Shown in pieces: positions 1-48,912 of a stretch of DNA of 64,000 nucleotides. The notes beneath the pieces were generated by a model, which saw only the letters and a program-made list of their open reading frames with translations, searched no databases and was not told the origin of the DNA. Each line of letters begins with the position of its first letter. The stretch's first letter is position 1. Both the position numbers and the translations under genes were made by a program. The DNA is taken from NCBI GenBank assembly GCA_965247095.1, contig OZ251997.1, forward strand, positions 2,656,001 through 2,720,000, read 5' to 3'. The stretch is from Candidatus Multivorans sp. (GTDB lineage Bacteria > Acidobacteriota > Thermoanaerobaculia > Multivoradales > Multivoraceae).

Positions 1-1680
1 GCGCGGCAGCAGCGCAGCGAGGTCGTCCTGAACCCCAAGCGCGGGACGATCTACGACTCGCGCGGCAGAACCATGGCGGTGTCGGTCGAGACCCGGACGC
101 TCTATGCCGAAACCGCCAAGGTGGACGATCCGCCGACGCTGGCCGCCTACATTGCTCCGTTGGTGGGCCGCACCGAGGAACGGATCGAGGCGCTGCTGCA
201 GAAGCCCGGGCACGTGCCGCTGGCGCGGAAGCTCGACCGCGCCCTGGCCGACGGCATCGACCTGTCCGCGTTCCCGGGCCTCTACTTCCTGGCCGAGAGC
301 AAGCGCGAGTACCCGATGGGTTCGCTGATGGCTCATGTGCTTGGCTTCGTCGGTACGGACACCAGCCTCGCCGGTATCGAACTCAAGTACGACGGCGAGG
401 TCGCGGGTGAGTCGGTCAAAAGGCACGTACTCCGGGATGGCCAGCAGCGGTTGGTCGTCGTCGCCGGTTCGTTGGGCGAACCGAAGCCGGGGGCGGACCT
501 CCACCTGACCATCGACGCGACGATCCAGCACCTGGCGGAGCGGGCCCTGCGGGAGACGATCGAGTGGTCGAAGGCCAAGGCCGGCAACGTGGTGATTCTG
601 GCGCCGGAGGATTCGGCGGTGCTGGCGATGGCCTCCTATCCGGCCTTCGACCCGAACCAGTTCGGCGACTTCGGTCCCGAGGAGCTCCGGAACAGGGCGA
701 TCCAGGATTCGTATGAGCCGGGCTCGACGTTCAAGACGATCACGGTGGCGGGAGCGTTCCAGCGGCAGGTTGTTCACGCCGACCAGATCATGGATTGCGG
801 CAATGGCCGGATTCGCGTCGGCAGGGCGCGGATCAAGGACCACAAGCCCTTTCCCGAACTCACCTTCCGCACGGCGATCGCCAAGTCGAGCAACGTCTGC
901 GCGATCAAGGCAGGGCTCCTGGCCGGTGAGCAGACGATGCAGGACCTCGTGGCGGCCTTCGGGTTCGGCCAGACCACCGGCATCGACATCGGTGGCGAGC
1001 ATCCGGGCATCGTGCCGCTCCGGGTCTGGGATCGCGAAACGACAGCGTATGCCTCGTTCGGCTACGGCTTGGCGGTGACGCCCCTCCAGCTTGCGAACGC
1101 CTACGCGGCGGTTGCCAACGGCGGGGTGTGGAACCAGCCGTACATCGTGCGCTCCCTGGAGCGCGAAGGTGAGATCGTCGACCAGCGTCCCAAGGATCGC
1201 AGCCGGCGCGTGATCTCGAAGTCGACCGCGTACGAGGTCATCCGCCTGCTCGAGGAAGTGGTCGTGAGCGGCACCGGCCGCAAGGCCGCCATCGCCGGCT
1301 ACCGCGTAGCCGGCAAGACGGGAACGGCCGAGAAGTCGGACTCGGAGGGCTACTCGGAGACCGGTCGCGTCGCTGGTTTCGTCGGTATCGCTCCCGCCCG
1401 GGCGCCCCGACTGGTCTGTCTGGTGATGATCGACGAGCCGACCGTCGCCACCGGTGGCGGTGAAGTCGCGGCGCCGGCCTTCCAACGCATCGTCAGCGAG
1501 GCGTTGTTCTACCTCGGTGCGACGCCTTCGCGGCAGCCGATGGGTTGGAGCCAGCCGGTGTGGCTGCGGCCGGCCGAGCCGGCGGACGTCAAGGTCGCCG
1601 ACGCGGTCGCCGAAGAGGAGGTGAAGCAGGAGGACACGGGGACGGAAGGCGAGCTGTGGACGGCAAAGGCTTCGAGCTGA
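1..1680 (+). CDS. ftsI: Peptidoglycan D,D-transpeptidase PBP3 (5'-truncated by window)
   Basis: Frame is open from position 1 (RGTIYDSRG dimerisation motif). Contains SxxK (EPGSTFK), SxN (KSSNV) and KTG (GKTGT) motifs. First gene of the dcw order. Confidence 0.95.
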   Translation, partial: ARQQRSEVVLNPKRGTIYDSRGRTMAVSVETRTLYAETAKVDDPPTLAAYIAPLVGRTEERIEALLQKPGHVPLARKLDRALADGIDLSAFPGLYFLAESKREYPMGSLMAHVLGFVGTDTSLAGIELKYDGEVAGESVKRHVLRDGQQRLVVVAGSLGEPKPGADLHLTIDATIQHLAERALRETIEWSKAKAGNVVILAPEDSAVLAMASYPAFDPNQFGDFGPEELRNRAIQDSYEPGSTFKTITVAGAFQRQVVHADQIMDCGNGRIRVGRARIKDHKPFPELTFRTAIAKSSNVCAIKAGLLAGEQTMQDLVAAFGFGQTTGIDIGGEHPGIVPLRVWDRETTAYASFGYGLAVTPLQLANAYAAVANGGVWNQPYIVRSLEREGEIVDQRPKDRSRRVISKSTAYEVIRLLEEVVVSGTGRKAAIAGYRVAGKTGTAEKSDSEGYSETGRVAGFVGIAPARAPRLVCLVMIDEPTVATGGGEVAAPAFQRIVSEALFYLGATPSRQPMGWSQPVWLRPAEPADVKVADAVAEEEVKQEDTGTEGELWTAKASS

Positions 1681-3227
1681 TGAGACTCGGCGACGCGATC
1701 GCCGACCTGCCGCTGCGGTCACCGCTGGGCCTTGCCGCCGCCGAGACGGAAGTCATGGGCGTTCAGCACGACTCCCGCCGGGTTGTGAGCGGCGATCTGT
1801 TCGTCGCCTGGCGAGGCGACCTCCACGACGGTCGTGTCTTCGCTCCGGACGCGGTGGCGCGCGGCGCCGCGGCGGTACTGGCCTTCGGCCCGCCGCCGGC
1901 CCCGCCGACCGTACCGTGGCTGGAGGTCGATGATCCCCGTGCCCGCATGGGGCGGGTGGCCGCGAGGCTCTACGGCCACCCGGAACGGGAACTTGTGACC
2001 GTCGGCGTCACCGGCACCAACGGCAAGAGCACGACGTCCCAGTTGATCGGCGCCTGTCTGACCCGGTCGGGTCGTTCCGCCGCAGTGGTCGGAACCCTCG
2101 GCCGCACGGTCCATCGGCCGGGTTCCGCGCCGGCGGCCTTCGAGCCCCTGAGCCGGGCGGCGGAGGACCGCACCACGCCGGAGAGCAGTGACCTGTTCCG
2201 GATGTTGCGCCGGGCCGTGGACCTGGGCGCGCGGTCGGCGGCGATCGAGGTCTCGTCCCACGCCCTCGACCAGGGTCGCATGAACGGCATGAGGTTCGAC
2301 GCCGCGGTGTTCACGAACCTGACCAGAGACCATCTCGATTACCACCCGTCGTTCGAGGCCTACTTTGCGGCCAAGCGCCGCCTGTTCTCCCTGCTCCGGC
2401 TCGAGGGCGCGGCGGTGCTCAACGTCGACGACGAGTACGGCCGTCGTCTGGCGTCGGAGCTCCAGGACAGCGGCAGGGTCGTGCGGTTCAGCGCCTCCGG
2501 ACGCCGGGACGCCGAGGTGCGAGTGGTCCGCGCCGACCTCGATCTTGCCGGGATTCGCGCCGAGATCGAGACGCCCGCGGGCCTCATCGCCCTGAACAGC
2601 CCACTTCTCGGCCGGTTCAACCTCGAGAACCTGGCCGCGGCCGTGGCCGCGGCCGGGGCCCTCGGCGTCTCCGCCGAAGCCATTCGCGACGCGGTAGCCG
2701 ACCAGCCGCCGCTCTCCGGCCGGCTGGAGCCGGTGGAGCGTGGTCAGGAGTTTCCCGTTCTCGTCGACTACGCCCACACGGACGGGGGTCTGCGCGCGGC
2801 CCTGGCGGCGGTGCGCGAACTGAGCGACCGGCGCATTGCCGTCGTGTTCGGCTGCGGCGGCGACCGCGACCGCGGCAAGCGGGAGCTGATGGGACGCGCG
2901 GCGGGAGAACTCGCGGATCTCGCGATCGTCACCGACGACAACCCGCGGAGCGAGGAACCGGCGCTTATTCATGCCGCGATCGTGGCTGGTCTCGAGGCGG
3001 CTCGGGGTTGTGCCTGGGAAGTCGTCGCGGGCCGGCGCGAGGCGATTCGGCGGGCCGTCTCGGTGGCGGCGGCGGCGCCGGGGTGGACGGTCCTGGTTGC
3101 CGGCAAGGGCCACGAGGCGACGCAAACGATCGGTGCCCTCAAGGTGCCCTTTCGTGACCGCGATGAGTTGGAGTCGGCCCTGAACGCACTGAACGGGGAG
3201 CTCGAGGGTGAGACGACCCCTTGCTGA
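1680..3227 (+). CDS. murE: UDP-MurNAc-dipeptide:meso-DAP ligase
   Basis: GTNGKST P-loop, TTPES, NLTRDHLDYH, DYAHT, DNPR (DAP specificity). ATG at 1680 overlaps the ftsI stop. Confidence 0.95.
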   Translation: MRLGDAIADLPLRSPLGLAAAETEVMGVQHDSRRVVSGDLFVAWRGDLHDGRVFAPDAVARGAAAVLAFGPPPAPPTVPWLEVDDPRARMGRVAARLYGHPERELVTVGVTGTNGKSTTSQLIGACLTRSGRSAAVVGTLGRTVHRPGSAPAAFEPLSRAAEDRTTPESSDLFRMLRRAVDLGARSAAIEVSSHALDQGRMNGMRFDAAVFTNLTRDHLDYHPSFEAYFAAKRRLFSLLRLEGAAVLNVDDEYGRRLASELQDSGRVVRFSASGRRDAEVRVVRADLDLAGIRAEIETPAGLIALNSPLLGRFNLENLAAAVAAAGALGVSAEAIRDAVADQPPLSGRLEPVERGQEFPVLVDYAHTDGGLRAALAAVRELSDRRIAVVFGCGGDRDRGKRELMGRAAGELADLAIVTDDNPRSEEPALIHAAIVAGLEAARGCAWEVVAGRREAIRRAVSVAAAAPGWTVLVAGKGHEATQTIGALKVPFRDRDELESALNALNGELEGETTPC

Positions 3228-4677
3228 TGCGGCCAGGATCATGAACGGCTGCCTGATCGGAGAGGTTGACCCCGGCGCCTGTTACCAGGGCGGGGCGATC
3301 GACTCGCGCCGGATCGAGGGCGGCGAACTGTTCTTCGCGCTGCCCGGTGAGCGGACCGACGGCCATCGCTTCGTGGCCGACGCCCTGGCCGCGGGCGCAG
3401 CGGCCTCGGTGGTGGCGGTGCCGGTCGACCGGGCGGGGGGCCCCCAGATCCGGGTCGACGACGTGACGACTGCGCTCCACGATCTGACCCGAGACCATCG
3501 CCGGCAGCTCAAGGCCCGGGTCGCGTCGGTCACCGGCTCGGCCGGCAAGACGACGACCAAGGATCTGCTGGCCCTGCTGCTCGGCGAATGCTGGCGGGTT
3601 CACAAGAGTCCGGGCAATCTGAACAACCTTCTCGGCTTCCCGCTCACGCTGCTTGCCGTAGACGAGGACTGCGAGTGGTTGGTGGCTGAGATGGGGATGT
3701 CGGCGCCCGGCGAGCTGGCCGCGGTCAGCCGGCTAGGCCGGCCGGACGTGGCGGTGTTCACGAACGTCCGACCGGCGCACCTCGCCGGCTTCGAGCAGGA
3801 GGGTGGCGTTGCCGCGGGCATGGAGGCAGTTGCCCGGGCCAAGGCGGAGCTGCTGGAGGGGCTCGCCGACGACGGGTTGGTCGTCGCGAACGCCGGCGAC
3901 CCCCACGTCGTGGCCCTCGTGGAGCGGTACCTGGCCGAACGTGCCGAACGTGCCGAACGTCCGGAAAGCGACCGCGCCGGTGCGGCCGGGCGCGTCGTCT
4001 GGTTCGAGGTGGCGCCCGTGGCCGCCAAGACCCCCGTTGCCGAGGTCACAGCACGTGGCCTCGAGCCGCTGGCGGGAGAACCGGGAACGCGCTTCGTGCT
4101 CGAACGGGGCGGCGCCAAAGCGCTCGTCGAGTTGCCCCTGCACGGCTGGGTCAACGTCGAGAACTTCCTGGCCGCCGCGGCCTGTGCCCTTCGCCTCGGC
4201 GTGCCGATCGAGCGCGTGGCTGCAGCCGCGCGCCGGCCGACATCCGCGGCCGGACGCGGCCAAGTGGTCTCGCTGTCCTCGGGCGCGACCCTGGTCGACG
4301 ACTCGTACAACTCGAACCCGGAAGCCGCGCAGCTTGCGCTTCAGGCCGCTCGCCTGCTCGACGGCCGGCGCCACGTGGCGATCCTGGGGGAGATGCTCGA
4401 GCTCGGCAGCGCCGAACGCCGCTACCACCGGGAACTGGGCAGCGCCGCCGCCGATCTGGGATTCGACCTGGTCGTGGGCGTTGGCGGGTTGACGACCGAT
4501 CTGCTGGCGGCCGCGGCCGAGGGCGGCGCGGAGACCGTCTGGTTCGAGGACTCGCTCGCCGCGAGCGCCGGCACGCCAGCCCTGATCAGGGACGGCGATG
4601 TGGTGCTGGTCAAGGGTTCGCGCGGCTCGGCGCTCGAGCATGTCGTCGGGGCGCTGAGGCAGGAAGGGGCGAACTGA
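3208..4677 (+). CDS. murF: UDP-MurNAc-tripeptide:D-Ala-D-Ala ligase
   Basis: GSAGKTTTK, GNLNN, DDSYNSNP, GEMLELG, KGSRG motifs; dcw synteny. Confidence 0.95.
   Translation: MRRPLADAARIMNGCLIGEVDPGACYQGGAIDSRRIEGGELFFALPGERTDGHRFVADALAAGAAASVVAVPVDRAGGPQIRVDDVTTALHDLTRDHRRQLKARVASVTGSAGKTTTKDLLALLLGECWRVHKSPGNLNNLLGFPLTLLAVDEDCEWLVAEMGMSAPGELAAVSRLGRPDVAVFTNVRPAHLAGFEQEGGVAAGMEAVARAKAELLEGLADDGLVVANAGDPHVVALVERYLAERAERAERPESDRAGAAGRVVWFEVAPVAAKTPVAEVTARGLEPLAGEPGTRFVLERGGAKALVELPLHGWVNVENFLAAAACALRLGVPIERVAAAARRPTSAAGRGQVVSLSSGATLVDDSYNSNPEAAQLALQAARLLDGRRHVAILGEMLELGSAERRYHRELGSAAADLGFDLVVGVGGLTTDLLAAAAEGGAETVWFEDSLAASAGTPALIRDGDVVLVKGSRGSALEHVVGALRQEGAN
3934..3960 (+). repeat. In-frame 9-bp tandem repeat (GCCGAACGT x3, encoding AER x3) inside murF
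   Basis: Directly visible in the sequence. Confidence 0.85.
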
Positions 4678-5753
4678 TGCTGCTCGACCTGCTGTTGCCG
4701 CTCGGCGAGAGGATGGCGCCCTTCAACGTCGTCCAGTACATCACCTTCCGCTGCGCCTGCGCCGCGTTGACGGGTGTCGTGCTGAGCCTGATGCTGGGCC
4801 CCAGTTTCATCCGCGCCGCGCGGCGCCTCTCGATCGGACAGGCGATCCGCGAGGAAGGCCCGGAACGGCACAAGAGCAAGGCAGGCACCCCGACCATGGG
4901 CGGATTGCTCATCCTCGTCGCGGTGATCGTGCCGACCCTGCTGTGGTCCGACCTTTCGAACGTCTACGTCTGGCTTGCGGTCGGCACGACGATCGCGCTG
5001 GGCGCCGTCGGCTTCGTCGACGACCTGCTCAAGGTCCGGCGGCGCCACAGCAAGGGTCTGGGCATGAAGGCGAAGTTCGGCCTGCAGCTCGCGGTGGGCG
5101 CGGCTCTCGGCGCCGGCCTGGTCCACCTGACGGATCTCGACTTGAACCTGAGCTTCCCCTTCTTCAAGACCCTGATGATCGAACTCGGGCCGTTCTACAT
5201 TCCCTTCGTCGCCATCCTGATCGCCGGTTCCTCCAATGCGGTGAACCTCACCGATGGGCTCGACGGCCTGGCGATCGGCGCCACCCTGGTGGCGGCAGCC
5301 ACCTACGCGGTCTTCGCCTACATCGCGGGCAACTCGATCGCCGCCCGCTACCTGCAGGTGTCCTACGTCGCTGGGGCAGGCGAGGTCGCGATCATCTGCT
5401 CCGCCCTGGTCGGGGCCAGCCTCGGCTTCCTGTGGTTCAACGCCCATCCGGCGCAGGTGTTCATGGGCGACGTCGGCTCGCTCGCGATCGGCGGCACGAT
5501 CGGCGCGGTCGCGGTCCTCTCCAAGCAGGAACTGCTGCTGGTGCTGGTCGGCGGACTGTTCGTGATCGAGGCGCTGTCGGTGATCGTCCAGGTGGCGTCC
5601 TACAAGACGACCGGGCGCCGGGTTCTGCTCATGGCGCCGCTCCACCACCACTTCGAACTCCGCGGCTGGAGCGAGAACCAGGTCATCGTGCGGTTCTGGA
5701 TTCTCGCCGTCCTGTTCGCCTTTCTCGGGCTTTCGACCCTGAAGTTGAGGTAG
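4677..5753 (+). CDS. mraY: Phospho-MurNAc-pentapeptide transferase
   Basis: GTPTMGG, NAVNLTDGLDGL, FMGDVGS, APLHHHFE motifs; multiple TM helices. Confidence 0.97.
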   Translation: MLLDLLLPLGERMAPFNVVQYITFRCACAALTGVVLSLMLGPSFIRAARRLSIGQAIREEGPERHKSKAGTPTMGGLLILVAVIVPTLLWSDLSNVYVWLAVGTTIALGAVGFVDDLLKVRRRHSKGLGMKAKFGLQLAVGAALGAGLVHLTDLDLNLSFPFFKTLMIELGPFYIPFVAILIAGSSNAVNLTDGLDGLAIGATLVAAATYAVFAYIAGNSIAARYLQVSYVAGAGEVAIICSALVGASLGFLWFNAHPAQVFMGDVGSLAIGGTIGAVAVLSKQELLLVLVGGLFVIEALSVIVQVASYKTTGRRVLLMAPLHHHFELRGWSENQVIVRFWILAVLFAFLGLSTLKLR

Positions 5754-5758
5754 CGGCA

Positions 5759-7207
5759 TTGGTCGAGTCGAGTAGCAGCACGTCCCCGAACCCGGCGCCG
5801 CCGGTCTCCGCCTGGCGGAGGGCGCTGGTCTATGGGCTGGGCCTGTCCGGCGTGGCGGCAGCGCGCGCGCTTGTTGACCGCGGTATTCGCGTGGCGGCCG
5901 TCGACGGCCGTCCGGCCTCCGGTCTTGGGTCGGCGGCACAGGAACTCCTCCGAACGGGACGGGTTGAGACGTTGCTGGACGAACAGGCGGCGCTGCCGAG
6001 AGGTCTCGACGCCGTCGTGCTGAGTCCGGGCGTGCCGCCCAACCGGCCCCTGCTGCGGAGCGCCCGGTCGGCGAAGACGCCGGTTGTGGCCGAAGTGGAG
6101 CTCGCCTACCGCCTGCTGGAGGTGTCGTGCGCGCCGACCGTGGTGGCGATCACCGGCAGCAACGGCAAGAGCACGACGACCGCGCTCACCGGCGCCCTGC
6201 TCGAAGCGGCGGGTTACCCGGTTGAGGTCTGCGGCAACATCGGCACGCCGCTGAGCGCCCGCGTCGACGGACCGCCCGGGCGGGTGTTCGTCGTCGAGCT
6301 CTCGAGCTTCCAACTCGAGGCGGTCGACCGTTTCCGTCCTCGGGCGGCGGCGCTTCTGAACATCAGCCCCGACCATCTCGACCGCTACCGCAACGTGGGA
6401 GAGTACGCGGCCGCGAAGGCGCGCATCTTCGGCAACCAGGCGCTCGGAGACATCGCTGTGGTGAACGGCGACGACTCCCAGGCGCGCCGGCTCGGGAGCG
6501 ACCGCGGGGGGGCATCGGCCCAGGTCAGGCGGCGCCTCTTCTCACGTCTCCGTCAGGTTGAGGACGGCTGCTACCTCGACCGCGACCGCGTGATCGAGGT
6601 CGGGCCGAACGTCCGGCGCGAGCTGTTCCGGCTCGACGATCTGGCGCTGGATGGGTTGCACAACGTGGAGAACGCGATGGCGGCTGCGCTGCTCGCGTCG
6701 GCTGTCGGCGCCGATCCACACGGTTTCGCCTCAGGTCTTCGCGGCTTTGGCGGCTTGCCCCACCGGATGCGTCTGGTCGAGACCATGGACGGCGTCCGCT
6801 ACTACAACGATTCGAAGGCAACCAACCCCGCGGCGTCCACGCAGGCGCTGGCCGGTTTCGGCGATGGCTCGGTTCACCTGATTCTGGGTGGCCGGGCGAA
6901 GGGGGAGGCCGATTTCGCCGAACTGGCGGCGGTGGCGGCGGCCAAGGCCGCGGCGGTCTACCTGATCGGCGAGGCCGCCGGCGCGATCGAATCCGTGCTG
7001 CTCGACGGTACGGCGCATCGCCGCTGCGGTTCGCTCGACCGGGCGGTCGAGGCGGCGTCCGCCGCGTCGAGCCGTGGCGAGAGCGTGCTGCTTTCGCCGG
7101 CCTGCGCCAGCTTCGACCAGTTCGAGGACTTCGCCGACCGCGGCCGCTGCTTCGAGCGTCAGGTCAGAGCTCTCGCGGCGGCTCGCGGAGGGGGCGGCGA
7201 TGGCTAA
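5759..7207 (+). CDS. murD: UDP-MurNAc-L-Ala:D-Glu ligase
   Basis: GLGLSG, GSNGKSTT, ELSSFQL, NDSKATN, SPACASFDQF motifs. Start placed at TTG 5759 (approximate) within ORF 4943..7207. Confidence 0.93.
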   Translation: MVESSSSTSPNPAPPVSAWRRALVYGLGLSGVAAARALVDRGIRVAAVDGRPASGLGSAAQELLRTGRVETLLDEQAALPRGLDAVVLSPGVPPNRPLLRSARSAKTPVVAEVELAYRLLEVSCAPTVVAITGSNGKSTTTALTGALLEAAGYPVEVCGNIGTPLSARVDGPPGRVFVVELSSFQLEAVDRFRPRAAALLNISPDHLDRYRNVGEYAAAKARIFGNQALGDIAVVNGDDSQARRLGSDRGGASAQVRRRLFSRLRQVEDGCYLDRDRVIEVGPNVRRELFRLDDLALDGLHNVENAMAAALLASAVGADPHGFASGLRGFGGLPHRMRLVETMDGVRYYNDSKATNPAASTQALAGFGDGSVHLILGGRAKGEADFAELAAVAAAKAAAVYLIGEAAGAIESVLLDGTAHRRCGSLDRAVEAASAASSRGESVLLSPACASFDQFEDFADRGRCFERQVRALAAARGGGGDG

Positions 7208-43569: not shown

Positions 43570-45086
43570 GCGCGCGAGACCCGGGAGGAAGGGCGGGGCC
43601 GACCGCTGCGCCCCGGTTGTGGGGCGGCGCCTTCGAATCGGAGGTCGATCCGGTCATTGACGCGTATACGCGGTCGCTGCCGTTCGACCACCGGCTCGCG
43701 GCAGCGGACCTGGTGGGGTGCCTGGCCCATGCCCGGATGCTCTCCGAGACCGGCGTGATCGACCGCGAGTCGTCCCGCGCGATCCTCGAAGGTCTCAGTT
43801 CCCTGCTGCGGCGGATCGAGGCGGGGGAGCTCGAGGTCGGCGGTGCGGACGAGGACGTTCACACCTGGATCGAACGGCAGCTCACCGAAGAGGTCGGCGA
43901 CGCGGGCCGGCGTCTGCACACCGCGCGCAGCCGGAACGACCAGACGGCCGTGGCGCTGCGGCTGTGGCAACGGTCCGAGGTCGAGCGCGCGGTCGCGGCG
44001 GCCGCGGGCTTCGCCGGCGCCCTGATCCACCACGCCCGGCAGCACAAAGGTACCGCGCTGCCGGGCTACACCCACCTGCAGCGCGCCCAGCCGACCAGTC
44101 TTGCGCAGCATCTGCTGGCCCACGCGTGGTCCGTTCTGGCCGACGCCGGGCGGCTGCGGCGGGCGCATCGAACGGCGGGACTCTGCCCCCTGGGCGCGGG
44201 CGCGATGGCAGGGTCGCCGCACCGGATCGACCCCCGACGGAGCGCCGAGCTGCTCGGCATGGAGGCGCCGTACCCGAACACCATGTGGGCGGTGGCGGAC
44301 CGCGACTACGCCGCCGAGGCGCTCTTCGCCTGCGCGCTCACCATGGTGCACCTCTCGCGCTGGGCCGAGGAGGTCGTGCTGTGGACGTCCCGCGAGTTCG
44401 GCTTCGCCCGGCTGCAGGACCGGGCCGCCAAGGGTTCGAGCATCATGCCGCAGAAGAAGAACCCGGAGCCGGCGGAGATCCTGCGCGGCAAGTCGGGCCG
44501 CGCGATCGGCGACCTCGTTTCGTTGCTGGTGACGGTCAAGGGCCTGCCGCTCACCTACAACAGCGACCTGCAGGAGGACAAGGAGGCGCTTTTCGACGCC
44601 TTCGACACGGTGTGCGCCTCGCTCGAGGTGGCCCGGGTGCTTGGCGAGAGCCTGGACTTCGATCGTGAAGCGATGGCGGCCGCGCTCGAAGGTTCCTACA
44701 TCACCGCCACCGATCTGGCCGACCATCTCGCCGTCGCCGGCGTGCCGTTCCGCAGCGCCCACGAGCGCACCGGCGCCGTGGTTCGGGCCGCCGAGGAGCG
44801 GGGCGTGGAGCTGTGGCAACTCCCGGCCTCGGAGCTTCGGGAACTCGTTCCCGAGATCGGGGACATCGACGGACTCTTGGCGGCGCTTCGCCCGGAAGCC
44901 TCGCTCGCCGCCCACAGGAGCTACGGCGGGCCGGCGCCGGAACGGGTCGCCGAGCAGATCGAACTCGCCGCGGCACGGTTGGAGGAGGAACGCCGGTGGC
45001 TGGAGGCACAGGAACCGCCGCCGGTCTACCGCGCTCACCTGGACGGCGAGCTGATGGCGGAGGCGATCCCGGGGGACGGCGCATGA
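43566..45086 (+). CDS. argH: Argininosuccinate lyase
   Basis: LWGG, HTARSRNDQ, PGYTHLQRAQP, GSSIMPQKKNP, YNSDLQEDKE. TTG start overlaps the argD stop. Confidence 0.95.
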   Translation: MSARDPGGRAGPTAAPRLWGGAFESEVDPVIDAYTRSLPFDHRLAAADLVGCLAHARMLSETGVIDRESSRAILEGLSSLLRRIEAGELEVGGADEDVHTWIERQLTEEVGDAGRRLHTARSRNDQTAVALRLWQRSEVERAVAAAAGFAGALIHHARQHKGTALPGYTHLQRAQPTSLAQHLLAHAWSVLADAGRLRRAHRTAGLCPLGAGAMAGSPHRIDPRRSAELLGMEAPYPNTMWAVADRDYAAEALFACALTMVHLSRWAEEVVLWTSREFGFARLQDRAAKGSSIMPQKKNPEPAEILRGKSGRAIGDLVSLLVTVKGLPLTYNSDLQEDKEALFDAFDTVCASLEVARVLGESLDFDREAMAAALEGSYITATDLADHLAVAGVPFRSAHERTGAVVRAAEERGVELWQLPASELRELVPEIGDIDGLLAALRPEASLAAHRSYGGPAPERVAEQIELAAARLEEERRWLEAQEPPPVYRAHLDGELMAEAIPGDGA

Positions 45087-45541
45087 GTCCGGCGATTCGG
45101 CGCGGCGCGATCCTCGACATCATCGGCGAGCGGCCGGTGTCGAGTCACAAGGAACTCGTGCGGGCGCTCGACCGGCGCGGTATCCGAGTGTCCCAGGCCA
45201 CCGTGTCGCGCGACGTGCGCCGTCTCGGCCTGGTCAAGGTGCCGCTCGCGGGCGGCGGCTCGCGCTACGCGCCGGCGGAGCAGGCCGCGAGCCCGCCCCG
45301 GCGCGACATCGAGCGGGCGCTGCGCCAGTTCGTGACCGGGTTCGACCAGGGCGAGGCGCTGATCGTGCTCAAGACCCGCAGCGGCCACGCCAACGCCCTC
45401 GCCGTCGCCCTCGACCAGACCGACTGGCCCGAAGTCGCCGGCACCCTCGCCGGCGACGACACTGTCCTCGTCGTCGTCAAGAGCGCCGCCGACCGGGAAC
45501 GCATTCGCGAGTCGCTCGCAGCGCTGCTGGAAGGCGACTGA
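45083..45541 (+). CDS. argR: Arginine repressor
   Basis: SQATVSRD, GTLAGDDT. Confidence 0.95.
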   Translation: MSPAIRRGAILDIIGERPVSSHKELVRALDRRGIRVSQATVSRDVRRLGLVKVPLAGGGSRYAPAEQAASPPRRDIERALRQFVTGFDQGEALIVLKTRSGHANALAVALDQTDWPEVAGTLAGDDTVLVVVKSAADRERIRESLAALLEGD

Positions 45542-45619
45542 GCTGGCGGGAGTAGTATCGAGGTAGCCGTACGGCGTCGGCCGAGCGGCAGGGATAAGAG
45601 TCAGGCGATGTAGTCCGAG

Positions 45620-47136
45620 ATGCCGCGACCAAACGCCTTCAAGGCAAACGCCAGCTTCTTCAGGATGATCGCCCTGGGTGCCGTGGGCGCTCAGGGCGTT
45701 CAGGACCACCTGAGCGCGTTTGGACACGAGATGGTGGAACTAGAGCGCGGTTCACTCTCGACGAAGATCTGGCAAGACGTGAAGAGAAAGCGGGTCCGGA
45801 TACCGGACCTGTGCTGCACGCTATGTGGTGTTCGAGTGGAGTCGCGAGCGAAGACAAGGCCCGACTTGCGAATGTCGCACTCTACGCAAGACGCGGAACG
45901 TGCTTGGGACTACGGCATGCTCGACGGCGACTGGGTTGCATTTCCCGTTCTTTCGTCGCAAGAAGACTACTGGAGCGCGGGGGCGCTTGATGCGGAGCGT
46001 TCGCTCTGGCGCGAGCGGATCCGCACTTCGTGGAAGAGCGACGGCTATCTCAACTTTTTTGAAGTGGCGTCATTTCGAGGTGTGCCGTTTGAGCAAATCG
46101 GGCGCAAGGGGGTCACCGAAGGTTCGGAGATCCAGATCAAATGGTCGGCGCGTTTTGCTCCTGAGGATGGTCGCGTCACACGGCTGGAAGAGAAGAAGAT
46201 TCACTACACGACCGTTGGCGCCCCCGAGCGTCAGAGGCACTATCGCCTCGGCTCGAGCCTGAGTCCGGTTCTTCACGAAGGACAGAGGTTCGAGAAACAC
46301 CAAGTCATAGCTGCCCAGGCGCCTTCGCTGGACGTGGCGGAGCTGCAGTGTCGTGGGGGGTGCGATCGGCGACGCATTGCGGAGATGATTCGGTCGCGCG
46401 AGCGTACGAGTCGCTTTACAGGGTGCAAGCTGGCAAGGCTCCTGAGGAGCGGGACACTGGTGGACGCGATTCGGGAACTGGCTCAGGACGCCGTGGAAGA
46501 CACCTATGTTCGGATGGAAGCGCGGTCGTTTCTCTGTGCTGTAGCGGGCGAGAATGCCGATGTTTGGTTTCGCGAGATTCTGCTCGACCACCCAGACGAT
46601 CAGATGCGGCTGGAAGCCGTTGTCGCGCTTGCAGAGGTGCAGACACCGAGTGCCTTCAGGCTGTTGAGTCTCGTCCTGGAGGATCGGACGCAGGCTCTGT
46701 ACCTGCGGAGCGCATGCGCTTGGGCCATCGGCTGCCACCCCACGCGGGACGCCGCCGAGTGCCTAGTCCGCGCATTCTCGGATATCAGTGTGGAGGTGCG
46801 CAGCGAGGCGCTGGCGGCGCTCGAGAATCTGGCCGACTCAGGGCTCCAGGCTCTCGTTGCCGGCCTTGGCCATAGCTCGACCGGCATAGCTGCGGGTCAG
46901 CCGAGGCAATTCGCAGAATCGGTCGCCTTCCCAGGAGTCAGGTTGAGCGGGTCGTCGAGATGGCGGAGAGCAGCCGGTCAACTTGGCCGACATGGGCCTT
47001 GGGCCATCTTCCGAGCGACGACGTGAAGCCCCTCATCGCGACGCTTCAGGAGAGACGCCCCGACGTTCACTTTGCGCTCTCGGTGTTGTGGACCTTCCTG
47101 GAGAGCTGGGTGTCAAGAGACTGGTCGGCGCGATGA
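45620..47136 (+). pseudogene. Putative restriction endonuclease-like protein with CxxC and HEAT/PBS-lyase repeats; 1-nt frameshift near 46897
   Basis: N-terminal PD..E-x-R-x-K-like motif (IPDLCCTLCGVRVESRAK). HEAT-like repeats (YVRMEA, QMRLEAVVALAE, YLRSACAWAIG, EVRSEALAALE). The -1 frame continues AEAIRRIG..WALG..VLWTFLESW to TGA 47134-47136, overlapping the MTase ATG. Confidence 0.65.
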
Positions 47137-48158
47137 GCGACCTGTTAGGGACTGGCCCTTGCTCCGAACTGAACCTGTGTCACACCCCTGTGTACCAGAC
47201 CCGCTATGGGGCTTGCTACCTCGGCGACTCGCTGAAGCTGATTCGCGAAATTCCGGCCGAATCGGTCGACTTAGTCGTGACCTCTCCGCCGTTTGCGCTG
47301 CTCAGGCAGAAGGCATACGGCAACAAGGGGCAGGCCGAGTACGTGGATTGGTTGTGTGAGTTCGGTGGGGAGGTCCTTCGTGTCCTTCGTGACACGGGGA
47401 GTTTCGTCCTAGATCTCGGTGGCGCCTACAAGCGGGGAGTGCCCGTTCGTTCTCTCTATCAGTATCGTGTTCTGCTGAAGCGATGTGACGAGACTGGCTT
47501 CCACCTCGCGGAAGAGTTCTTCTGGCACAACCCGGCGAAGCTACCTTCGCCAATCGAGTGGGTGAACAAGCGAAAGATACGAGCCAAGGACTCGGTGGAT
47601 ACCGTTTGGTGGCTTTCGAAGACGGAGTGGCCAAAGGCAGATGTTAGACGAGTGGTGGTTCCCTACTCGGAACGTATGAAGAAGCTCCTGCGAAACCCAG
47701 AGAGCTTCTACAGCCCCAAGAAGAGGCCATCCGGCCACGAGATCGGCAAGAGCTTCGAAGCAGAGAACAAGGGCGCAATACCTCCCAATCTCCTTCAGAT
47801 CGCAAACACGGACAGCAACTCTACGTACCTGCGTCTTGCGAAGCTCTTAGGGGTTAAGAGACATCCAGCCCGTTTTCCTCTGGGTCTTCCCAAGTTCTTT
47901 GTCGCCTTCCTTACCGATCCGGGTGATCTGGTTCTGGACATATTTGCTGGGTCAAACACGACCGGAAGAGCCGCAGAGGAACTCGGCCGCAGATGGGTCG
48001 CAGTGGAGATTGACAAGGACTACGCCGCCGGCTCGGCCCTTCGCTTCATGGATCGACTGCGTTCGTCCGAGGTGCGAGAGACGTTTGACCGAGTATGTCG
48101 GGGAGAGGCACCAGATTTGTCGGGACCGCCGTCGTTGTGGGAGCAGGTGGCTCCTTAG
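47133..48158 (+). CDS. Beta-class N4-cytosine DNA methyltransferase, M.PvuII-like
   Basis: TSPPF catalytic motif precedes HPARFP and the DIFAGS AdoMet motif. The LPSPIEWVNKRKIR and RPSGH.IGKSF segments match M.PvuII as I recall it. Confidence 0.92.
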   Translation: MSDLLGTGPCSELNLCHTPVYQTRYGACYLGDSLKLIREIPAESVDLVVTSPPFALLRQKAYGNKGQAEYVDWLCEFGGEVLRVLRDTGSFVLDLGGAYKRGVPVRSLYQYRVLLKRCDETGFHLAEEFFWHNPAKLPSPIEWVNKRKIRAKDSVDTVWWLSKTEWPKADVRRVVVPYSERMKKLLRNPESFYSPKKRPSGHEIGKSFEAENKGAIPPNLLQIANTDSNSTYLRLAKLLGVKRHPARFPLGLPKFFVAFLTDPGDLVLDIFAGSNTTGRAAEELGRRWVAVEIDKDYAAGSALRFMDRLRSSEVRETFDRVCRGEAPDLSGPPSLWEQVAP

Positions 48159-48192
48159 GCCCTAAGGGTGATTCGCGCCGAGGGCGGCAACT

Positions 48193-48822
48193 TCAGCCGC
48201 CCTGAACAGCCCGCCGCACCTGCCAGGACTGCCGCGTCTCCTGCGACGAGAAGCGCTGCTCCGCCCAGGGATCGCCGTAGGTGTGGTACCCGTTCTCCTC
48301 CCAGAAGCCCCGCTCGTCGGCGTTCAGGAACTCGATGCCGGAGACCCACTTGGCGCTCTTCCAGGCGTAGAGGTGGGGCACCACCAGGCGCAACGGACCG
48401 CCGTGGTCGGGCGCCAGCGGTTCGCCGCCGTGACGGTCGGCGAACAGGGCGTGCTCGGACAGCAGGTCTTTGAGCGGCAGGTTCGTGGTGTAGCCGCCGT
48501 AGCAGTGGAGCATCGCGTGGGTGGCGTCGGCGGTGGGCCGCACGGCCGCCAGGACGTCCCGGGTCGAGAACCCCGACCACGGGTTGTCCAGGGTCGAGAA
48601 GCGGGTCACGCAGTGGAAGTCGGCGACGACCTTGCGGCGCGGCAGCGCCTGGAGCGCCTGCCAGTCGAACGCGTGCTCGGATTCGACACGCCCGAACAGG
48701 CGCAGCGCGAACCGGGCCGGATCCACCTCCGGCGTGTCGCCGCAGGAGAGCACGGGCCACTTCTTGGTCACGTACTGGCCGGGGGGCACGCGGTCGTCGC
48801 CGCGATGGGGCGCGTCGTTCAT
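48193..48822 (-). CDS. Sulfite-oxidase-like molybdopterin oxidoreductase (YuiH-like)
   Basis: PPGQ, DFHCVT, HGGPLRLVVP, YAWKSAKW, GFWEENGYH. Confidence 0.9.
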   Translation of the reverse strand: MNDAPHRGDDRVPPGQYVTKKWPVLSCGDTPEVDPARFALRLFGRVESEHAFDWQALQALPRRKVVADFHCVTRFSTLDNPWSGFSTRDVLAAVRPTADATHAMLHCYGGYTTNLPLKDLLSEHALFADRHGGEPLAPDHGGPLRLVVPHLYAWKSAKWVSGIEFLNADERGFWEENGYHTYGDPWAEQRFSSQETRQSWQVRRAVQGG

Positions 48823-48867
48823 CGCGGCGGAGAATACATGGCGACGAGTGCTCGGTGCTGAGTCTGT

Positions 48868-48912
48868 CCTGGGAACGCGGGCATCCTGCCCGCATCGGGC
48901 GCGAAGCGCCCG
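48868..48912. repeat. REP-like double hairpin
   Basis: CCTGGGAAC-GCGGGCA-TCC-TGCCCGC followed by CGGGCGC-GAA-GCGCCCG. Confidence 0.55.

Follow-up and report, generated by a model that had tools for sequence, protein, structure and literature searches.

A HEAT-repeat protein beside an M.PvuII-like methylase: a probable Type II restriction-modification cassette with a candidate new nuclease in Candidatus Multivorans

Introduction

What is the role of a HEAT-repeat protein whose gene lies directly upstream of a methylase gene of the PvuII type and overlaps its start? The question is raised by a locus in a 64,000-nucleotide stretch of a Candidatus Multivorans sp. genome (contig OZ251997.1, positions 2,656,001 to 2,720,000 of the forward strand), called the window here and numbered from its first letter. 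Behind argR the window holds a two-gene island of lower GC content: the first gene (R) encodes the HEAT-repeat protein and carries a frameshift, and the second (M) encodes the methylase and is intact. We consider it probable that the island is a horizontally acquired two-gene Type II restriction-modification (R-M) cassette, and that the upstream gene encodes the cognate nuclease, of an uncharacterised family. An earlier note on this DNA had already described much of the layout: a lower-GC island after argR, a frameshifted first gene of about 505 amino acids (aa) once repaired, a PD..ExRxK-like motif with a CxxC and a distant CRGGC, HEAT repeats, an ATGA overlap, a beta-class M.PvuII-like methyltransferase, and a nuclease-like partner thought to be undescribed. 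All of these held up in the present analysis.

In the proposed scheme, the methylase would shield the host's own DNA through N4-methylation of CAGCTG at its inner cytosine, and the product of the upstream gene would be the restriction endonuclease that matches it. R would have a PD-(D/E)xK-type catalytic core (candidate catalytic residues E42, D63, E74, R/K76 and K78) with a barrel-sandwich subdomain inserted in the nuclease half; the last HEAT repeats, together with helix 1 and a hairpin at residues 119-139, would hold two subunits in a symmetric dimer, an arrangement that would bring two catalytic centres to the palindrome. In the strain that the window comes from, a 1-bp deletion in a G run would have killed the nuclease and left the methylase to survive alone. 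We infer both the cleavage activity of R and its specificity for CAGCTG.

The methylase and its linkage to R

The methylase gene (47133 to 48158, plus strand) encodes a protein with TSPPF ahead of DIFAGS, the motif order of beta-class amino-methyltransferases. It matches PF01555 (E = 2.5e-39), the PADLOC Type II methylase model MTase_II PDLC03323 (E = 3.1e-149) and M.PvuII (PDB 1BOO; 438.6 bits, E = 1.4e-130, with residues 13-330 of 341 aligned), and by these matches it appears to be an orthologue-grade relative of M.PvuII. The product of M.PvuII is N4-methylcytosine (m4C) in CAGCTG. Gene 2 is predicted to make N4-methylcytosine at CAGCTG as well: because the methylase is a close M.PvuII homologue, its target is presumably CAGCTG too.

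R belongs to a large family. A word-indexed search gave 361 proteins at E ≤ 0.001, the best of them nearly all 488-522 aa long, and an exhaustive search of 50%-identity representatives gave 1083 at E ≤ 0.001, 319 at E ≤ 1e-10 and 67 at E ≤ 1e-30; length and layout hold down to about 27% identity. Records that have a name are called “HEAT repeat domain-containing protein”, “HEAT repeat protein” or “hypothetical protein”. Eighty genome loci, all in metagenome-assembled genomes, were kept as a close set, with uncultured hosts in Acidobacteriota, Planctomycetota, Gemmatimonadota, Chloroflexota, Cyanobacteria, Verrucomicrobiota and NC10 as well as two Methanotrichaceae/Methanosaeta archaea. A tblastn search of R against plasmid and phage collections gave no match at E ≤ 1e-5, and the ESM Atlas returned only R's own family, at scores (0.75-0.76) under the usable range. 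In full-text literature searches, read at the level of titles and abstract openings, no description of the HEAT-nuclease family came up, and a putative REBASE entry may exist.

In 76 of the 80 close loci, a same-strand M.PvuII-like methylase gene (58-92% identity to the window's) lies directly downstream of R; in the remaining four, a contig edge falls within about 120 nt of the R match. The methylase open reading frame (ORF) has its first start exactly 4 nt before the R stop in 14 close loci, and in the window the R stop and the methylase start overlap in an ATGA (47133-47136). A distant set of 80 metagenome loci, with R at 27-41% identity, divides differently. An M.PvuII-like methylase is present in 38 loci (divergent upstream, tandem downstream or, once, convergent), and in another 34 (among L089-L155) the neighbour is an ORF of about 582-683 aa, upstream and divergent, with a permuted PF01555 match. 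In this methylase of about 600 aa, FAGSG falls at about residue 55 and DPPF at about residue 375 in all but two of the 34 copies, which are cut; some members match a zinc ribbon. Four distant loci hold only an edge fragment or a degraded methylase trace, and another four are cut on the upstream side; a full adjacent methylase is found in 72 of the 80.

The earlier note had proposed a neighbourhood survey for constant linkage to PvuII-like methylases. By these counts the R-methylase linkage goes beyond chance and is essentially obligatory, and the R family pairs both with the PvuII type and with the 600-aa type. R and M also travel together. Their pairwise distances correlate across 67 loci (r = 0.857, a value that 0 of 999 permutations reached), with R the more divergent (mean distance 0.48 vs 0.31). 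No third conserved gene was found around R (the most frequent cluster of flank ORFs reaches just 7 of 78 loci), no conserved small ORF or C-protein gene recurs across loci, and Pfam and NCBIfam scans of R found no ATPase domain. At L081, the gene downstream of the HEAT-nuclease (2201-2896) has a sub-threshold match to a RiboL-PSP HEPN model (E = 3.5e-05, 24.2 bits vs a cut-off of 28.4).

The putative nuclease core

The N-terminal half of R contains a short series of strongly conserved residues. The sequence IPD63-LCC66TLC69-GVRVE74SR76AK78 includes the putative PD-(D/E)xK hairpin of strands beta2 and beta3 (D63 to K78; 45806 to 45853, plus strand), and E40-L-E42 (45737 to 45745, plus strand) belongs to a predicted strand beta1. 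D63, C66, G70, R72, E74 and K78 never vary in two alignments (A1 and A2), nor do the corresponding positions in a third (A4); E42 is invariant in all three, the distant subfamily included. Position 76 is R or K, and one distant member (P0198) has the canonical E-S-K at 74-76. The CxxC is placed in the beta2-beta3 turn: C66 is invariant, while some distant members have S or T in place of C69. Further along, in C244-R-G-G-C248 (46349 to 46363, plus strand), C244 is invariant in A1 (44/44) and nearly invariant in A2, and C248 is variable. With C69 and C248 variable, the zinc binding named in the earlier note is only a possibility, as is a structural metal site.

Where these residues fall was predicted by folding window residues 1-260 with 41 sequences (predicted local distance difference test, pLDDT, 85). 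The model has a helix at 11-32 and strands at 38-40, 64-66 and 72-75; it puts E42 beside beta1, D63 immediately before beta2, and E74, R/K76 and K78 on beta3. The nuclease reading gains weight because the invariant residues sit at these beta1, beta2 and beta3 positions. In a model of a whole intact relative, P0004 (pLDDT 87, predicted template modelling score 0.83), helices and strands mix in the N-terminal half, and the C-terminal half is entirely helical. Foldseek searches with the whole model found HEAT/armadillo proteins only; with the N-terminal model, the sole non-polymerase match was the Holliday junction resolvase Hjc (E = 0.012).

In an unfiltered structural search, the rows spanning approximately residues 8-250 are nucleases of the PD-(D/E)xK type or tRNA-splicing endonucleases. 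They are led by Hjc (2wcw; Z 8.3, root-mean-square deviation [rmsd] 3.4, 115 of 126 residues) and the homing endonuclease I-Ssp6803I (2ost; Z 8.0, 134 of 148 residues), followed by a second Hjc (1gef, Z 7.3), NhoI (Z 6.9), MspI (Z 6.7), Hje (Z 6.6), a third Hjc (1hh1, Z 6.5), D212 (Z 6.5), PvuII (3ksk; Z 6.3, rmsd 9.1), DpnI (Z 5.9), a RecU-like protein (Z 5.6) and two tRNA-splicing endonucleases (Z 5.5 and 5.4), which reach only to about residue 155. By these models the N-terminal domain of R is likely, though not proven, to have a PD-(D/E)xK nuclease fold. At the sequence level, a profile of the N-terminal domain found nothing significant among PDB sequences (the best, at E = 0.18, was RNA polymerase beta'), PF01870 (Hjc) was unmatched in the Pfam scan of R, and in the host genome PF01870 gave two weak matches only, both to other proteins.

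Residues 176-233 (46145 to 46318, plus strand) form an insert that, by its structural matches, would be a barrel-sandwich hybrid subdomain. It resembles biotinyl/lipoyl-type domains (Z 5.6-8.2), and residues 176-236 superpose on a segment of the RNA polymerase beta subunit at Z 9-10.4 (rmsd 1.0-1.2 over 57-58 residues, 26-28% identity); in sequence searches the likeness is not significant (E ≥ 0.46). A second structural search was filled by this polymerase-like insert and was silent on the core. A separate stretch, KRKRVRIPDLxCxxCGxRxE (45779-45853, residues 54-78), resembles the N-terminal zinc-binding element of RNA polymerase beta' without reaching significance (E 0.18-6), and R has in this way two separate polymerase-like pieces. 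A Vsr-like repair nuclease was also considered for R and set aside, by reasoning only, on size, architecture and the m4C partner.

Could the HEAT protein be something other than a nuclease? It might instead be an accessory of the methylase, for example a scaffold or a targeting factor that binds DNA, or it might stand in for a C protein as regulator. The fold matches reach a Z of only about 8, nuclease profiles are unmatched, HEAT repeats are typically protein-binding scaffolds, and the polymerase-like pieces (the hairpin, weakly beta'-like and not significantly so, and the beta-subunit-like insert) come from parts that contact nucleic acid and are non-catalytic. These points have to be set against four others. 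First, the acidic and basic residues at the beta2/beta3 positions of a PD-(D/E)xK core are invariant down to 27% identity. Second, the family pairs with two unrelated methylase architectures, unlike a methylase-specific cofactor. Third, frameshifts and deletions recur in R and not in the methylase, and fourth, the presumed target site is strongly avoided (both described below). A non-catalytic role is therefore considered improbable, and the nuclease reading is retained.

The HEAT solenoid and a predicted dimer

The C-terminal half of R is a HEAT-repeat solenoid (native residues about 250-505; 46367 to 47133, plus strand), which in the window is broken by the frameshift. HEAT_2 (PF13646) matches it in three stretches (E = 7.7e-11, 42.6 bits vs a cut-off of 27.7), alphaRep structures match it by sequence and by fold, and the model has helices throughout residues 250-500. 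Among PADLOC-DB v2 profiles, R matches only HEAT-ARM_XIII (E = 7.6e-06, in the HEAT region) and RT_UG21 (E = 0.011).

Two copies of residues 8-505 were predicted together, alongside three controls. The homodimer reached ipSAE (interaction prediction score from aligned errors) values of 0.70, 0.67 and 0.70, vs 0.00 for the best control; in calibration, the mark was passed by 20 of 30 solved same-chain pairs and by 1 of 23 single chains. The runs have at least 63% of contacts in common, with partner pLDDT of at least 81. The predicted interface is symmetric and involves residues 9-25, 47-50, 119-139 and chiefly 391-505, the tightest pairs being 482-497 with 425-459 and with 482-489. The last HEAT repeats are thus predicted to form the homodimer interface.

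The earlier note had offered two roles for the solenoid, and they fared differently. That it oligomerises the enzyme agrees with the predicted homodimer, whose interface is mostly the last HEAT repeats. The other role, in which the solenoid would detect a phage or host protein and thereby turn on the nuclease in a regulated R-M-like defence, found no support. Such sensing would have some precedent in the HEAT/ARM domains of certain candidate defence proteins, of which the weak HEAT-ARM_XIII match is a reminder, and R precedes M with no C-protein gene to provide the usual delay. Against it, there is no conserved third gene, whether sensor or effector; the dimer prediction buries the C-terminus of the HEAT region between the two subunits, a simpler role; the region is conserved in A1 and not hypervariable; and a classic methylase partner and an avoided site fit plain restriction. 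A sensing role is accordingly held to be very unlikely.

For the cassette reading, a more detailed version can be put forward only tentatively, and we regard it as doubtful in full: that the HEAT solenoid and not the nuclease core builds the dimer and may clamp or read DNA, and that the nuclease family keeps CAGCTG as its target while swapping two unrelated types of methylase, the beta-class PvuII type and the alpha-ordered type of about 600 aa.

A frameshift in the window and decay of R elsewhere

The first gene has an open frame of 468 codons (45620-47026), and the native remainder continues in another frame to 47136. The 5' part in its native frame (45620 to 46896, plus strand; residues 1-426, taken from the ORF list) belongs to a protein that is 85% identical to the intact P0004, which like other intact relatives is 505 aa long. 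At 46894 to 46896 (plus strand), alignment with two related Candidatus Multivorans loci (L001 and L002) shows GGG here where these two loci and intact relatives have GGGG, a 1-bp deletion. Beyond it, native residues 427-505 and the stop (46897 to 47136, plus strand; open frame 46876-47136) lie out of frame. This 3' part aligns to the C-terminus of P0004 and P0006, was found by the genome search as a second fragment corresponding to query residues 424-505, and ends its last 79 native codons at the TGA at 47134-47136 that overlaps the methylase ATG. The frameshift swaps native residues 427-505 for 42 out-of-frame residues and, because those native residues are lost, removes most of the predicted interface. 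Since the lost residues hold most of that interface, the window's nuclease is most likely dead, with the methylase left as a solitary enzyme.

The frameshift looks real because GGG is reproduced, gap-free, in contigs from two sequencing runs (X1, depth 66.5; X3, depth 32). In X3, a minority contig (depth 8.8 of 39.4) lacks a single nucleotide at another point of R, about 46764; the L002 strain and the protein P0005 show this lesion too. The X3 sample appears to contain two strains whose R genes were broken independently, and the two distinct lesions therefore suggest that R has been inactivated independently within the lineage. Could the window's R gene nevertheless be functional, through a consensus error in the homopolymer or through slippage of the ribosome or RNA polymerase on the G run? 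The break does lie in a short G run that is GGGG in close relatives, the fourth G is present in X5 and X7, two runs of other studies whose strains are about 97% identical, and the host's CAGCTG count is the lowest in the genus sample. However, GGG is gap-free in the contigs of both runs, no minority contig with the extra G is among those listed for X1 and X3, and the other deletion near 46764, in L002 and the X3 minority, is an independent inactivation. No slippery site or stimulatory element was noticed either, though no search was aimed at one. There is only a slight chance that the gene still works.

Decay of R is not confined to the window. Of the 76 close loci with a methylase, 6 have R broken into a pair of ORFs (L002, L051, L056, L060, L066 and L068) and four more have an R whose end is shortened or aberrant (L010, L062, L063 and L080), and two database members (P0091 and P0093) have internal deletions; the methylase match, by contrast, lies within a single ORF in 76 of 76. 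In one further protein, P0097 (352 aa, on a 2.3-Mb contig), R residues 1-262 run straight into the last third of the methylase, the result of a deletion that would disable R and M together.

Avoidance of CAGCTG

If the cassette recognises CAGCTG, the site might be expected to be scarce, and it is. Against expected counts from a maximal-order Markov model, CAGCTG occurs 73 times in the 4.62-Mb host genome where 1244 are expected, and its ratio of 0.059 is the lowest among the 64 six-base palindromes. In the window itself it is absent (18.2 ± 4.3 in shuffles). It is also the lowest palindrome in the pooled flanks of all three groups of carriers: 78 sites against 317 expected around 78 close loci (ratio 0.25), 16 against 64 around the 38 distant loci with a PvuII-type methylase (0.25), and 30 against 84 around the 34 loci with the 600-aa methylase (0.36). 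A second palindrome, AAGCTT, is the second most avoided in the host (120 observed, 562 expected, 0.21) and the second lowest in the pooled flanks (0.47), a deficit that hints at HindIII-type restriction pressure.

Several observations weigh against reading the island as a restriction cassette whose nuclease has died in the window. First, the avoidance extends beyond carriers of R. Genomes of 24 other species of the genus were searched; none has the R gene and only 5 have an M.PvuII-like gene. CAGCTG is nevertheless down to about 100-300 sites in 21 of these genomes, against about 4200-5900 for a reversed control word; the exceptions are G003, G011 and G013. Genomes of the same order range from depleted to undepleted (305-6800 sites). 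At least part of the avoidance in the host is a legacy of its genus; given this genus-wide depletion in genomes that lack R, the avoidance can therefore not be credited to the cassette alone. Second, the identification of the nuclease core is indirect. Pfam, NCBIfam and PADLOC scans of R gave HEAT-type matches only and no nuclease family, Foldseek found no match for the N-terminal model at E ≤ 0.001, the canonical lysine position is mostly arginine, and the best Z of 8.3 is middling; it is because a Z of about 8 is common for unmatched models that the fold was called only likely. Third, X1 and X3 come from one sample, possibly the source of the assembly, so their agreement on GGG is not fully independent and an error in the G run at 46894-46896 keeps a small residual chance; some of the split R genes in other metagenome-assembled genomes could likewise be assembly errors.

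The five same-genus genomes with a PvuII-like methylase also show what else can stand beside it: a 486-aa Mrr_cat protein in G002 and G005, ResIII/helicase proteins in G001 and G015, and a 328-aa protein without assignment in G023. Because the neighbours differ among these five members of the genus, repeated exchange of nuclease partners around one type of methylase is suggested.

The insertion and its surroundings

The island is set off from its surroundings by composition, with a GC content of 0.55-0.66 (45600-48200) against 0.70-0.75 in the flanks. On its left is argR (45086 to 45541, plus strand; PF01316 and PF02863), whose stop is only 78 bp from the R start, and on its right a convergent gene for a molybdopterin-binding oxidoreductase (48193 to 48822, minus strand; PF00174, E = 2.4e-38). 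The region was used as a query against 10 genomes of the genus, and in every one its argR side (query positions 1-645) and its oxidoreductase side (about 3294-3938) match near each other, with gaps of 0-8 bp in the five that were read (G003, G004, G007, G009 and G010). Because the flanks adjoin in these genomes, the segment from about 45545 to 48192 is taken as an insertion of about 2.65 kb. The cassette occupies the same place after argR in L001 and L002, two related Candidatus Multivorans assemblies (class Thermoanaerobaculia, Acidobacteriota).

Scans of the region found no promoter-like site, an uninformative number of terminator-like sites (4 vs 2.1 expected) and, among repeats, short chance-level pairs only, with no direct repeats flanking the island. 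Past the oxidoreductase gene, the spacer holds a 38-nt element (48863-48900) with about 16 further copies in the host genome at 93-97% identity, probably a small intergenic repeat family.

Comparison with known systems and implications

The natural comparison is with the PvuII system of Proteus (M.PvuII, R.PvuII and C.PvuII). The methylase here is a close homologue of M.PvuII, the presumed target is the same CAGCTG, R and M are separate polypeptides, and R is a predicted homodimer with a PD-(D/E)xK-type core. There are also clear differences. R.PvuII is a small single-domain enzyme, whereas R here is a multi-domain protein of about 505 aa with a barrel-sandwich insert and a HEAT solenoid; no C-protein gene is present, and in the close family R comes before M with a 4-nt overlap. 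R gave no Pfam, NCBIfam or PADLOC restriction-enzyme match at E ≤ 1, PDB sequence searches returned no PvuII chain at E ≤ 10, and the structural match to 3ksk is poor; by these searches R is not a member of the R.PvuII family. The earlier proposal of a non-homologous nuclease replacement is upheld in that family and architecture differ, and not in the strict sense of the word, as the nearest folds are PD-(D/E)xK enzymes, the superfamily of R.PvuII.

Other known proteins resemble R only in part. Hjc and I-Ssp6803I are the best structural neighbours of the modelled core, aligned over nearly their whole chains, and share an acidic residue and an E-x-K/R on adjacent strands; however, their sequence similarity to R is undetectable, they act in junction resolution and homing, and they have neither the sandwich-barrel hybrid insert nor HEAT repeats. 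The alphaRep and PBS-lyase-type HEAT proteins (PF13646) match the C-terminal half, but in R such a solenoid shares one chain with a nuclease-like domain, and its last repeats are predicted to form a symmetric homodimer interface. The sandwich-barrel hybrid motif of the RNA polymerase beta subunit superposes on residues 176-236, but in R it is an isolated insert of 60 residues within a nuclease-like domain.

The most economical reading is that the nuclease family is new and widespread within Type II R-M systems. In the output of annotation and defence-finder pipelines, these cassettes appear as an orphan methylase next to a protein that is called hypothetical or “HEAT repeat domain-containing”, and because of these labels a widespread restriction system would have been overlooked. 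If the reading is true, R would represent a new family and domain architecture of restriction enzymes, a second and structurally distinct cutter of CAGCTG, and a clear case of modular exchange of partners between nucleases and methylases. Should the solenoid contribute to the reading of sequence, it would also add a repeat-based mode of DNA recognition that is new among restriction enzymes. The window itself would then illustrate the textbook fate of such a cassette, in which the toxic gene decays and the methylase stays.

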